A DNA stretch of 64,000 nt from Lytechinus pictus (GCF_037042905.1 NC_087250.1:10294001-10358000); one strand, 5' to 3'. Counted from the first letter of the stretch, positions 18,938-29,580 are shown. Program-made: numbers and translations. Notes: a model not told the origin generated them from the letters alone.

Positions 18938-19280
18938 TCCCATGCCTTCATAAAAGCTGTGTTCATAATTAATCTATAAAGACTGATTAACATAAAGTAT
19001 ATGTAAAATCAAATCTGTATACATGTTTAAATCTAAACGTAATATACATAGCTTTATAGTGTCCTTACCTGTTTGATCCTCACATTTTACATTGTATATA
19101 TCTATTCATGTGATTTTTTACCTAATAAATAAATTGAAAAAAATTGAATTGAATTGAAATCTGATACAAATGGTCACAGTGTAACAGGCATTCTAACTGG
19201 TCACATGCCTTCATAAAAGCTGTGTTCATATTAATCTAATATAGGCTGAATAATATAAAGTAAGTGTGAAATCAAAGCTA
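18938..19280 (-). pseudogene. Two degenerate fragments of the exon 9 3' part, inside intron 9
   Basis: 19179-19227 reads [15 protein letters not shown] versus exon [16 protein letters not shown]; catgccttcataaaagctgtgttcata recurs at ~18940 and ~19204. Confidence 0.8.
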
Positions 19281-19290
19281 AATACATACA

Positions 19291-21392
19291 CAGAGCTGCC
19301 AACCTTGTGCAAGCAAAAAAAGGAATCATTATGGCCAAAAAAAGGAATTTCCAACAAAAAAAAGGAATGTGTTAAAACGAACCTTAAAACCACACACGAC
19401 AAACATCCAATGCAAAAACTATGTATGCAGTGAACAATTAAAAAAAAATTAATCTCTAGGCCTAGTCTGGGCTAAGTAACGGAGTGTTACAAATTGGACC
19501 CTTAGTCTTGGGCCGTTTGATATAATCTACCAACTTTAATTAAGTCAGTAGCAGGGCTTGAATTAAGAATTGAGAGGGGCAAGGCCATTTTTAAATGGGC
19601 ACTTTCAGCTTAAAGGCAACCGGCAAAGTGGCCTTGGATGCCCAAAAATTTCAAGGGGTATCAAGGCCATTCTAAGGGCATGAAGGCCACTTTTATTCTA
19701 GTCAAATGGGCACCTAGGCAAATTTTTCCAAAAATGACAAGTAGGCCTTTCATTTTGTAGTGCAACCTACTCCGGCACTTATCAAAGTGAGGATTTGTCG
19801 AGAAAAAATTATTTCAGGGGCACCAAAATCAGTTCTGGTGAACATTTTTAGGGCTCCATTTTTCTGGGGCTTCCTTTCCACTTCTAAAATAATTCATTGT
19901 TTTATGTTGAGTTTCCTGACAAAACTACCAAATTGTAGACTAAGAGAAATTAAAAAAAAAGTTGACATCAATTCAGACTTCTCTTCCCAAGTAACATTGT
20001 TTTTGCCAAACAGTACCCTTTAAAATTAAAGTGTCATACAATGGAAGTGTACATGTAACATTCCACAAATATAGAAAAAAATTTCATAAATTAATCTAAT
20101 CTAAAATTCAAATAGATCTATAGATAAGAAGTTGAAATCATTCCACAAAAGTCCCATCGTAAATCACTTCACGATGTGCACAGCTCAGCCTCAATCACAC
20201 TGCACGCACACTCAATCATCCCCAGCAGTGACAGCACTATAGAGCAGACATCTAGGCCGCCAGAACCGGGGAAGAAATCTTCCCATTCCTGCTAAACTGA
20301 ATGCTAAAGTGCCGACTTTTTAAATGAATTCCAAAGGCAGGAGGACATCTCTCTAGTATAAATCATGTGAAACTATCAATAAATGTTGAATATCACCCAG
20401 AATTATTACTTCAGGGGACAATGAAGAGCTTTCCAGGTCTTCTCAAAGCCGAATTCATCGTATTTGTTTGATACGAGTTGATGAAAATCAACCAGACAGT
20501 ACCGTTATCCGAAGGGAATTGATATAAATCAATTCAAGAAAATAGCCTCAAAATTTCATTTCTTTATCACTACAATTAATTTTAAAGTATATGAAAAATA
20601 TATTTTGATGATTCAATCTTTAATATGTATGATGAGTATTTTTGTAAAATTTTGCAAAAGGAATAATAATTTCCCTCAAACCTCAAAATCTCCCTCCATT
20701 ACAAATGGACTCTTCTCTTACTACATTTGGGGAATTACCCTACCCAATTCATCGTACTCCTCGCTCTGCGCTGCAAGAACAAACGTTGGCTCCACTCACC
20801 TGAAGAGTGTTGGCCCGTGCGTAAAGACAATGTATTAGCAGTAACGTTAGATCTAACATTCGGCGGAAATCCGATTTTCGGATTGTTTTTTTGTACATAA
20901 AACATCACTTTATAGGAAAGAAATTACATGCAAATTTAAGATAAAATATATAAAATTCAGAAATATCGTACCTTAGACCGCAGTTACTGTTATTTCCTTT
21001 CAAATGATGATCAAAACATAATCATCCTCGATCCTTTTGTTTGTCATCGTAAGTTGCCATCTTGGATGACGTCATCATCCTTACAGACGTATTTACCAGT
21101 CGCTATACATCGCGATTCGTACCATGCATGCCGCTCGCATATTCAACTAACGTATATGTACGTGCACGCTATCAAATTATTAAAGTGCGTTGGAAAACCG
21201 GCCGGCGGGCGACTACGCACGTGCAAGTACCAGGCTCATCTCGGGCTCAACACGCACGTCACATACATACAATTATGTACACACATTATCAAAATTGTCA
21301 AAAAACGTAATTTGAAAAGAAAAACCATAATGCCGTAATTTGAATGAAAAAACGTAATGATTACGGCAAAAACGTAATGGTTGGCAGCTCTG
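19291..21392. mobile_element. 2.1-kb non-autonomous DNA element, TIR CAGAGCTGCCAACC, 6-bp TSD CATACA
   Basis: Perfect 14-bp TIRs; cataca at 19285-19290 and 21393-21398; relative with CAGACCTGCCAACC TIR at 31836-32165. Confidence 0.8.
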
Positions 21393-22097
21393 CATACAGT
21401 TGAGGCCAGAAGTTTACATACACCCAGGAAATTCAAAGAAAGGTTGACACTTGCCAAACATCATAAATTCACTGTATCTTATAAAATATTTGTGCTATCA
21501 TGACAAATTTGATATCAAACAAATGAGTATGTCATGCCCCTTCATTACATTGCTTTGTCATCAGGAAAAAAAATTAGGTGTCATTTGTGCGAAAAAAATC
21601 TTCATATACTACGTTTGATACATCGTGAGACAACTGGTTATTTCTTCTACTCAATCCTTCACCACGATGAACCTCTTCCACAAATATCTTCATATTTTAG
21701 ACAAATTAAAAATAAAAACTTTACAAAAACAGTTCATATTTGTGCTAGTTACTTCTCAACAAAAAATTTCAGATTACACTTTTTTGTTCAGTGGTGACAT
21801 ATCATGATATAAAATGTAATATACATAGATTTGACACAAATACATGTATTACTTTTTGGCACGAATATTACTTTTTTTTCTTCAAGGAATGTTCCACCTG
21901 AAATGTACTTTAATCCTAAAGGGCATCCCAATCATGTGAAAGAGCTTAATAATACACTCTGTCATTTGATACAAATTAGTCAAGTAGTTATATTTCTGCA
22001 GATATAGTAAATTTACGATGCTTGGCAGGCGACCAAATTTCATTGAATTCCATGGGTGTATGTAAACTTTTTGCCTCAACTGTATATGTAGATCTAA

Positions 22098-22253
22098 TAC
22101 CTCACTCACATTACCCTACGGCGGCCGTAAGGTGAGTTGAAAACAGCCATTTTCATTCAAACCACCTACATGTATATGCAGCTTATACAAAAATGTTAAA
22201 ATGGCTGTTTTCGACTTGGCCTACGGCCGCTGTAGGGGAAATGTGACTAAGGT
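22098..22253. mobile_element. Short palindromic MITE (ACCTCA.TCACATT.CCCTACGGCGGCCGTA)
   Basis: Inverted halves; second copy at ~25230-25385. Confidence 0.7.
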
Positions 22254-22294
22254 TTAAGCGTAAATGAACACAACCTAGTGAATGCAGTGCTTAC

Positions 22295-22450
22295 ACATAG
22301 ATCTGTCACAAGGGGTACAGGTGTGACAGGCATCTTAACGGGACCCATGCCTTCATAGAAGCTGTACTCCGCCCTGTCTGTACTGATAATGGTCCACGAT
22401 GCCCCGTCGTTGATGATCTCCCTTTTGGGGTCCTTCGGCGATGGCGTGGC
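22295..22450 (-). CDS. Su(H): Su(H) coding exon 9 ([25 protein letters not shown]...[22 protein letters not shown])
   Basis: Signature [16 protein letters not shown] acceptor, GTAAGC donor; 156 nt. Confidence 0.96.
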
Positions 22451-27630: not shown

Positions 27631-27653
27631 AAAAAAATAATAATAATAATACA

Positions 27654-28992
27654 ACAAGTGGAACGCCTCTGGCAGTCTCGCCTGCATTATGCAATTTAAT
27701 ATAGCAGCAGTGCTAACTTTGAAAACTACTATAAAATAATCATTCACAAAAACATCATTCATATAATGACATAATACCACGTTCATTGACCATAAATGAC
27801 ATTTGAACGGAGACTTAAGACTGTCAACTACACCCATGTCCACATTTCATTCACTCTATCCATAAACTTTCAAAGTTATGATGGCACTTCAACAATTACC
27901 CCAACATGGCCTAAGTTTATTGACCTTAACTGACCTTTGACTTGGTTTTGTGACCTGAAACTCACAGGGGATGTTCAGTGATGCTTGATTACTCTTATAT
28001 CCCAAGTTTTATTAACTAGATCCATAAACTTCAGAGTTAGGATGGTAATTCAACAAATACCCCCAACACGGCCAAAGTTCATTGACCTTAAATGACCATT
28101 GACCATGGTCATGTGACCTGAAACTCGCACAGGATATTCAGTGGTACTTGATTAACCTAATGTCCAAGTTTCATGAACTAAATCCATAAATTTTCAAAGT
28201 TATGATGGTAATTCAACAAATACCCCCAACTTGGCCAAAGTTCATTGACCCTAAATGACCATTGACCTTGGTCATGTGACCTGAAACTCAGGCAGGATGC
28301 TCACTAATACTTGATTAACCTTATGTCCAAGTTTCATGGACTAGATCCATAAATTTTCAAAGTTATGATAGTAATTCAACAAATACCCCCAACTTGGCCA
28401 AAGTTCATTGACCCTAAATGACCATTGACCTTGGTCATGTGACCTGAAACTCAGGCAGGATGTTCACTAATACTTGATTAACCTTATGTCCAAGTTTCAT
28501 GGACTAGATCCATAAATTTTCAAAGTTATGATAGTAATTCAACAAATACCCCCAACTTGACCAAAGTTCATTGACCCTAAATGACATTTGACCTTGGTCA
28601 CGTGACCTGAAACTCGAGCAGGATGTTCACTTATACTTGATTAACCTTATGCCCAAGTTTCATGAACTAGGTCCATATACTTTCTAAGTTATGATGTCAT
28701 TTCAAAAACTTAACCTTCGGTTAAGATTTTGAAAATAATTTTCCCAACATGGTCTAAGTTCATTGACCCTAAATGACCTTTGACCTTGGTCATGTGACCT
28801 GAAACTCAGGCAGGATGTTCAGTAATACTTGATTAACCTTATGTCCAAGTTTCATGAACTAGGTCCATATACTTTCTAAGTTATGATGTCATTTCAAAAA
28901 CTTAACCTTAGGTTAAGATTTGATGTTGACGCCGCCGCCGCCGCCGTCGGAAAAGCGGCGCCTATAGTCTCGCTCTGCTATGCAGGCGAGAC
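27654..28992 (+). mobile_element. Helentron-associated (HINE/DINE-1-like) element, family 1, with an internal 163-bp tandem array
   Basis: Subterminal inverted repeat GTCTCGCCTGCAT / ATGCAGGCGAGAC; terminal hairpins; units phased at 28051, 28214, 28377, 28540. Confidence 0.8.
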
Positions 28993-29002
28993 AAAAATTA
29001 TC

Positions 29003-29130
29003 TATCCTCCCTATTTCTGTAAAGCATCTTTACACGAAGAAAGAAATGTTTTCTCTTGCCCGAGTCTGAAATGTATCAAGTTTTAACGGCACAGTAATCC
29101 TGTATAACAGTGATAAAGATTCAAGAGTTA
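29003..29130 (-). pseudogene. Degenerate copy B of the exon 5 5' half
   Basis: Matches ~27247-27380; keeps CAG and reads DYCAVKT then TGA. Confidence 0.88.
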
Positions 29131-29494
29131 TTAAAACCGTTGCAGAAAAGACTCTCTGATGTCCCGGCCTTCGAAACACAAGGCATTTTCACGTTTCCGT
29201 ACCAAAAAGGTTAGCAATTAATCATATGCTTGATTTTCAGGATTGATTGTACATTGTAGTCAATGCACAATCAATTGGAGAAAAACGTTCAAAGATCATT
29301 GCTATGCCTTGTGTTACGGGCCCCAGATGAGACTGAGGAGGAAGCATTAGCGTCTGAGACTCGAGACGAAACACTCACTAATTCCAATCAAGGCACTGAC
29401 TTTACTACCATCCCCCTCCTTTACTTTCCCTCACATCCCTTTTGTCCCTTCCTTGTTCTTTTAATCCCCCCCCCCTCCTTATCCCCTCTAAACA

Positions 29495-29580
29495 ATTAAC
29501 CTTTTCTTCTAATTTTGAGTTGCAGCATATGTATCTTGATCACTGTTACCGATTCCAATAATGTAACAGATGTGACCAGA
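29495..29580 (-). pseudogene. Degenerate copy of the exon 4 3' end plus donor
   Basis: Encodes [13 protein letters not shown]; tcttgatcactgttaccgattcc identical to exon 4; donor decayed to AAG|GTTAAT. Confidence 0.85.

Follow-up and report, generated by a model that had tools for sequence, protein, structure and literature searches.

The Su(H)/RBPJ locus of Lytechinus pictus

In this work, we have analysed a 64,000-nucleotide stretch of the genome of Lytechinus pictus (GCF_037042905.1, NC_087250.1:10294001-10358000; hereafter the window), which carries on its minus strand an echinoid Su(H)/RBPJ gene. Our results show that the coding exons 4 to 9 of this gene have same-strand partial copies in flanking intron, as revealed by self-blastn, pairwise alignment and an exon-by-exon search.

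The window is AT-rich (31–44% G+C) and abundant in repeats. Translated pieces of its minus strand are similar to recombining binding protein suppressor of hairless, with P0001 of Lytechinus variegatus as the best match (93% across the final exon), and one exon matches solved Su(H)/RBPJ/LAG-1 structures with an expectation value (E) of 3.5e-30. A tblastn search with P0001 located eleven coding pieces between about 41270 and 16047. Joined at canonical AG/GT boundaries, exons 2–11 encode 536 residues that align with residues 76–611 of P0001 as one ungapped block, with 524 of the 536 identical. Because of this alignment, the locus is, judged from its sequence, an intact echinoid Su(H)/RBPJ orthologue.

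Reads from four public sequencing runs were aligned to the window, and the joints listed were dominated by reads derived from transposable elements (TEs). Public runs share at most 0.29 of the 31-letter words of the stretch, and none reaches half. RNA reads lie over exon 10 (position 18798) and exon 5 (position 27311), and their first mate is on the plus strand in all cases (22/22 and 29/29, respectively), as expected of a minus-strand gene in a stranded library.

Partial copies of six consecutive exons

The copies of exons 4–9 are significant both in self-blastn (E 1e-44 to 3e-7) and in the exon search (1e-26 to 9e-10), the sensitive form of which raised two weak matches to E 1.7e-11 (exon 4) and 8.6e-10 (exon 9). 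All six exon-to-intron similarities had been noticed in an original prediction made from the sequence; they are present on the strand of the gene, at the coordinates proposed there or no more than about 25 nt away, and its exon numbering agrees with our spliced gene model. Alignment also bears out that five of the six copy sets span a splice site, the donor for exon 4 and the acceptor for exons 5–8. In the sensitive search of the window no copy of exons 1, 2, 3, 10 or 11 was found, copies thus being confined to 6 of the 11 exons. The copies contain 13–97 nt of exon and 46–172 nt of intron, with breakpoints at varied distances from the boundary, and those of exon 5 (copy A) and of exons 6, 7 and 8 lie directly head-to-tail, in units of 64–211 bp. 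They are direct, not inverted, repeats, which excludes pairing of the copies with their own exons in RNA.

The most extensive set precedes exon 8 (23038..23178, minus strand; tblastn, splice boundaries and array analysis), where ten units of 64 bp form an array (Tandem Repeats Finder: 23162-23794, period 64, 9.9 copies, 96% matches). The terminal unit (23162-23225) is made of the last 47 nt of intron 7 and the first 17 nt of exon 8, and nine extra units (23226..23801, minus strand, 96% in the unit alignment) follow it upstream in the gene. Each of the nine has a putative branch point, a pyrimidine tract, an AG and 17 exon-like nucleotides; in all of them the sequence ...cctttctccag runs into ATAATCC, so that their predicted 3' splice sites, upstream of exon 8, are intact. 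The pyrimidine tract is as in the authentic site in seven of the nine, units 3 and 8 varying, and most units match the authentic site exactly between −36 and +5. If used, every extra unit would lead to a stop within 17–27 codons. At exon position +6 all nine units differ from the authentic exon; at +9 eight share one difference, and the remaining unit carries a different letter, by which the codon is altered (CGG to CAC). Both of the differences held in common, at +6 and +9, are synonymous third positions (ATT/ATC and CGG/CGC), and the 47 positions of the intron part show one further difference. By these sequence comparisons the array is young, and its synonymous changes suggest that either the constrained exon has changed or a different allele was the source of the array. 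Its junction shows a possible TTGAT microhomology. Read depth over the array was 0 (23312-23712 in the RNA run; three of the four runs), which is uninformative, as reads fitting several places were possibly skipped.

Exons 7 (25444..25556) and 6 (26500..26637), like exon 5, were delimited on the minus strand by tblastn, AG/GT boundaries and the spliced model. The exon 7 copy (25724..25895, minus strand) is a tandem copy, 83% identical to its parent sequence (25728..25544; self-blastn 25544-25724 versus 25724-25889, 82.4%, E 1e-44). The exon edges are copied as had been predicted, but in this case the unit comprises merely 13 nt of exon next to the acceptor and 172 nt of intron. Its AG is kept, a stop would follow after 6 codons if it were used, and a GATGATG microhomology is common to the exon and the unit start. 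An independent run supplied a contig of 394 letters that extends over the complete copy and the flank upstream of it; within 363 letters, 14 differ and 3 gaps occur. The exon 6 copy (26696..26792, minus strand) is also in tandem, with a period of 111, and contains 46 nt of intron and 53 nt of exon at 90% identity to 26683..26585 (self-blastn 26585-26683 versus 26696-26792, 89.9%, E 1.7e-29); its acceptor AG has become AA.

Exon 5 (27169..27343) has two copies. Copy A (27462..27650, minus strand) is head-to-tail with its parent sequence (27457..27247) and includes 114 nt of intron, the acceptor and 97 nt of exon at 78% identity (self-blastn 27247-27457 versus 27462-27650, 78.2%, E 1.6e-42); the acceptor AG is lost and a 12-nt deletion is present. 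Copy B (28996..29152, minus strand) comprises the intron end, the acceptor and 97 nt of exon, with 83% identity between 29121..29003 and 27367..27247 (self-blastn 27247-27348 versus 29003-29104, 84.3%, E 3.7e-25); it keeps the AG, and an in-frame stop would follow after 7 codons. Since the private substitutions and the end junction of copy A also appear in copy B in the alignment, copy B is a second-round duplicate. The gap of 1.37 kb between copies B and A is exactly a dispersed repeat that bears a 163-bp satellite (27631..28997; second copy 1298-2105), which indicates that the two copies and the parent exon once stood together as a triple array in tandem, which a TE then divided. One contig from organism C leaves the window at 27465, at the junction between copy A and the parent, and this break may mark a presence/absence difference of the copy in that organism, the pieces being very short; the 13 loose letters have 3 matches with 2 mismatches in the window against about 1 expected, and are uninformative.

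The exon 4 copy (29470..29570, minus strand) contains the last ~65 nt of the exon (30035..30200, minus strand; tblastn to P0001 residues 171–226, 100% identity, AG/GT boundaries), the donor and ~30 nt of intron, and is 75% identical, with indels, to 30099..30006 (self-blastn 30033-30099 versus 29499-29570, 77.8%, E 3e-7). Its donor has changed from GTAAGT to GTTAAT, with loss of the G at +5. A palindromic repeat resembling a miniature inverted-repeat transposable element (MITE), found by self-comparison, lies between the exon and its copy (29643..29962; other copies at 31306-31624 and 3424-3703). The element is ~320 bp long, its three copies are 88% identical, and two of them flank exon 4. A tandem origin of the exon 4 copy was rejected: with the MITE (29643-29962) removed the offset is 209 bp, and the remaining ~115 nt are dissimilar, scoring 20 against a shuffle mean of 23.6, with 255 of 300 shuffles scoring equal or higher.

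Exon 9 (22295..22450, minus strand; self-blastn, tblastn and splice boundaries) is copied over 22301-22365. Copy B (19159..19287, minus strand) holds 65 nt from inside the exon, without a splice site, together with a 64-nt unrelated flank (80% between 19223..19159 and 22365..22301; self-blastn 22301-22365 versus 19159-19223, 80.3%, E 3e-7). Copy A (18937..19024, minus strand) is a duplicate of the 5' part of copy B placed 263 bp further downstream in the direction of the gene (85%; 18937-19024 versus 19200-19287, 85.4%, E 1e-19). Its exon-derived part is 22 nt long (18960..18939), corresponding to the final 22 nt of the exon 9 fragment, and it ends 50 nt upstream of exon 10 (18784..18887, minus strand; tblastn, splice boundaries and exon search), an exon without a copy of its own. 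Two copies in an intron had been predicted for exon 9, and two exist; however, the one at 18938 has merely 22 nt of the exon, and both lie 3.1 kb from the parent, beside exon 10, not head-to-tail and without a splice site. The flank of copy B (19267-19305) resembles the 3' end of intron 2 (31811-31850) over 40 nt (82.5%, E 1e-4), a similarity that may be chance, both being pyrimidine-rich and acceptor-like. Contigs from organisms B and C stop fitting at 19291-19316, beside copy B, and may reflect a presence/absence difference of the copy in these organisms; here again the pieces are very short.

The stops that tblastn shows in the copies of exons 5 and 9, together with frameshifts, the 12-nt deletion and several indels (alignments), exclude the copies as alternative coding exons. 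Each copy has at most one splice site, and none is flanked by both a 3' and a 5' site. Among the older acceptor copies the AG is lost in two of four (exon 5 copy A and exon 6); it is kept in exon 5 copy B, in the exon 7 copy and in 9/9 exon 8 units. Given the early stops, transcripts using the intact decoys would be candidates for nonsense-mediated decay (NMD). In four of the five measurable copies the exon part is better conserved than the intron part (79 versus 68%, 79 versus 77%, 94 versus 85% and 100 versus 82%), as would follow from constraint on the parent exon with drift confined to the copy; the young exon 8 unit reverses this trend (88 versus 98%). The original prediction that copies arose repeatedly and independently is upheld: their identities run from 75% to 96%, which argues for separate events, the exon 5 and exon 9 copies are serial, and TEs have entered between copies. 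No fewer than eight events are required to account for the copies, and their ages clearly differ.

At least 31% of the exon 4–10 span is TE-like, as judged from copies inside the window alone, and TE-like blocks start 41–71 nt downstream of four donors (exons 4, 5, 6 and 9), with little unique intron beside them. Both observations suggest that the ancestral exon 4–9 block was much more compact. RNA reads on the dispersed satellite repeat (27631-28997 and 1298-2105; 163-bp unit, 5.3 units) are deep and one-sided, with 1340–3684 first mates on the plus strand versus 19–27 on the minus strand, so that copies of this repeat somewhere in the genome are heavily transcribed in one orientation. Intron 1 contains a degenerate TCTA microsatellite (37677-38090, ~104 units, 68% matches). 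Outside Su(H)/RBPJ, a 461-codon open reading frame (ORF) on the minus strand (58731-60116) lies in the most G+C-rich part of the window and probably represents one large exon of another, uncharacterised gene; its internal start reads MGCTHS..., which resembles an N-myristoylation start. A Pfam search with three long ORFs outside Su(H), this one included, gave no family for any of the three, and the sensitive search found no exon-derived copy of this large ORF (0/1).

Origin of the copies and their clustering at exon edges

We consider it probable that the copies are what is left of eight or more small duplications (64–263 bp) that happened separately in an intact, expressed Su(H)/RBPJ gene, and that their clustering reflects chance together with a few aids. 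Most of the events would be head-to-tail duplications that arose at short microhomologies when replication slipped or switched template; the GATGATG of exon 7 and the possible TTGAT of exon 8, both at junctions, would fit slippage or microhomology-mediated template switching. When such a duplication happens to straddle a splice site, one copy of the site would stay joined to the whole exon, and splicing would keep using that one, while the other would merely lengthen the intron. The intronic copy would then decay as a non-coding pseudo-exon fragment, which a TE insertion may push away from its parent and which may be duplicated anew. Three circumstances would aid clustering: the exon 4–9 block was ancestrally compact, much of the present intron being later TE; duplications lying wholly inside exons would be purged; and the copy of a conserved exon would remain recognisable about twice as long.

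How far the clustering exceeds chance was evaluated on a list of events drawn up by hand, in which 6 touch an exon and 16 are other local duplications, low in copy number and on the same strand. Left out were microsatellite-like rows, as well as pairs internal to TEs or present in many copies (the 163-bp satellites, 12090/12331 and 16537/16749); including them would make the expectation somewhat higher. The ~16 other local duplications in the window have units of 20–366 bp, which indicates that this class of mutation is common here. One comparable non-TE duplication had been predicted in deep intron, at 39333, and it is indeed the sole other unit of at least 100 bp within the gene. This duplication (39333-39634, intron 1) is a 150-bp tandem with 98.7% identity, each unit with its own inverted repeat and a 32-bp sub-repeat.

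Several results weigh against chance. With uniform placement 1.0–1.3 exon-touching events are expected, and the probability of 6 or more is 1e-4 to 5.5e-4. The excess persists when TE-like sequence and derived copies are removed (P 3e-4 to 2.6e-3 overall): with wholly exonic placements redrawn the expectation is 1.1–1.6 and P is 3e-4 to 1e-3, rising to 0.013–0.022 with a twofold visibility bias and to 0.064–0.089 with a threefold one; on also masking 20505-22250, owing to its very high summed read depth, the expectation is 2.0 of 7 and P is 0.0026, 0.031 and 0.093, respectively. A visibility bias of at least threefold is needed to explain the excess away, while about twofold is justifiable, because one copy, the parent exon, is conserved; a bias above twofold is conjecture. 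Within the exon 4–10 span, 6 of the 8 low-copy duplication events touch an exon, and the acceptor side accounts for four of the five splice-site copies. Extra splice sites should be mildly harmful, so that neutral theory would lead to a deficit at exon edges, not an excess. The tandem model fails for exon 4, the exon 9 copies are not adjacent to their parent, and that the decoy sites go unused is something that we infer.

A second explanation, which we regard as unlikely, is that exon edges in this genome or gene are subject to a genuine bias in mutation or retention, with duplications forming preferentially at the meeting of conserved exon and divergent intron, either through mis-registered re-annealing during repair between highly divergent haplotypes or through polymerase stalling where composition or chromatin changes at the exon boundary. 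It is favoured by the 6 events against 1.0–2.0 expected, by the share of events that touch an exon in the exon 4–10 span and by the several ages of event at the same kind of site, and the low sharing of words with the public runs (≤0.29) fits a highly polymorphic species. Yet the evidence is a single locus, chosen after the fact for its unusual look, and P is 0.013–0.09 with a modest visibility bias; no copy exists of 5 of the 11 Su(H) exons or of the 461-codon ORF nearby, and the unit ends, lying 13–97 nt into the exon and 46–172 nt into the intron, have no common breakpoint at the boundary. Thus, of the process at exon boundaries proposed in the original prediction, a nominal excess in the window stands (P 1e-4 to 3e-3), but it weakens with a two- to threefold visibility bias and concerns one gene. 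A word search of the open-access literature gave no report of an exon-edge excess of such copies, nor of a six-exon run, which is not proof of absence.

In its broader form, this idea would hold that in a highly polymorphic genome short duplications arise or persist across splice sites at several times their frequency in deep intron, a possible cause being repair or replication restart that re-anneals on conserved exon flanked by divergent intron. We think this rather doubtful. If it were true, exon edges would keep shedding pseudo-splice-site copies, and the exon 8 array would be their youngest product and a test bed for acceptor choice.

Could the copies, above all the nine 3' sites before exon 8, be kept as decoy splice sites that tune Su(H) output through unproductive splicing and NMD, or through intron retention? 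The intact branch points, tracts and AGs of 9/9 array units, most of which do not differ from the authentic site between −36 and +5, and the early stop that each would bring if used are what such a role would look like, and decoy exons promoting intron retention are known in human cells (PMC6097662, as far as the part of that report drawn on here goes). The array is nevertheless young (96% identity), and its intact sites need no selection, while the older copies are decaying, with the AG lost in exon 5 copy A and exon 6, the +5 G lost in the donor and indels; moreover, each copy has a single splice site, not the pair of an exon. Selection for decoy sites, also raised in the original prediction, is therefore not favoured, in view of the AG lost in two of four older acceptor copies, the GTTAAT donor, the stops and the indels, and we judge it improbable.

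Finally, false duplications from an assembly that stitched divergent haplotypes at conserved exons are very improbable, despite the apparently high polymorphism of the species and the zero depth over the array in three of the four runs (uninformative if multi-fitting reads were skipped), since the copies are 75–90% alike with many indels, far below allele-level expectation, the decoy AG is broken in two of them, a TE separates exon 5 copies B and A, and the independent contig over the exon 7 copy differs by 14 letters and 3 gaps in 363 while copy and parent are just 83% alike.

The clustering is unusual, and one locus does not establish the need for a special mechanism; duplications absorbed into introns are a known kind of event. 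If chance and visibility bias account for it, the gene offers a textbook series of splice-site duplications that were absorbed, decayed, split by TEs and duplicated again, with an essential Notch-pathway gene unharmed. If a genome-wide excess at exon edges were true, it would amount to an undescribed mutational bias tied to exon–intron structure or heterozygosity.

Comparison with known systems

Tandem exon duplication can give rise to mutually exclusive exons, each of which is complete, has its two splice sites and keeps an open frame. The Su(H) copies resemble them in being exon-derived sequence in the adjacent intron on the same strand; unlike them, they are fragments (13–97 nt of exon) with at most one splice site and early stops.

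Closer in kind are tandem exon duplications in Drosophila followed by intronization of one copy, with NMD as a backup (Rogers model; Lehmann et al. 2010, PMC2891723), and internal gene duplication with intronization has been reviewed (PMC3443670). In the parts of these reports on which we draw, as in Su(H), a small tandem unit carries exon and splice signals, the copy ends up in an intron, the coding sequence is kept and NMD is a plausible backup. Those events, however, make a new intron or shift its position, whereas in Su(H) existing introns are lengthened, and the events occur in six consecutive exons.

The decoy exons described as promoting the retention of introns (Parra et al. 2018, PMC6097662) share with our copies the presence of non-productive splice sites inside an intron. 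As described in the portion of that report used here, they are cryptic exons that have both sites, were validated in reporters and do not stem from the exon next to them, whereas the Su(H) copies are exon-derived and known from sequence alone.

The nearest counterpart of the exon 8 array is found in intron 7 of human F7, where the first unit of a 37-bp minisatellite spans the boundary between exon 7 and intervening sequence 7 (IVS7) and the identical donor pseudo-sites are functional but silent (Borensztajn et al. 2006, PMC1557585, in the part considered here). In both genes the terminal unit straddles an exon–intron boundary and the authentic site is joined by intronic pseudo-sites of like sequence. 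The unit is longer in Su(H), 64 bp versus 37 bp, and F7 repeats a donor, with pseudo-sites downstream, whereas Su(H) exon 8 repeats an acceptor, with nine pseudo-sites upstream; a 5'-to-3' scanning rule would not favour the authentic Su(H) acceptor, which is the most downstream. The silence of the F7 pseudo-sites was demonstrated by experiment, whereas those of exon 8 are predicted. With ten sequence-identical 3' splice sites at 64-nt spacing, the exon 8 array may thus serve as an acceptor-side counterpart of the F7 donor minisatellite, as far as that system is described in the part cited, for the study of splice-site choice and NMD load.

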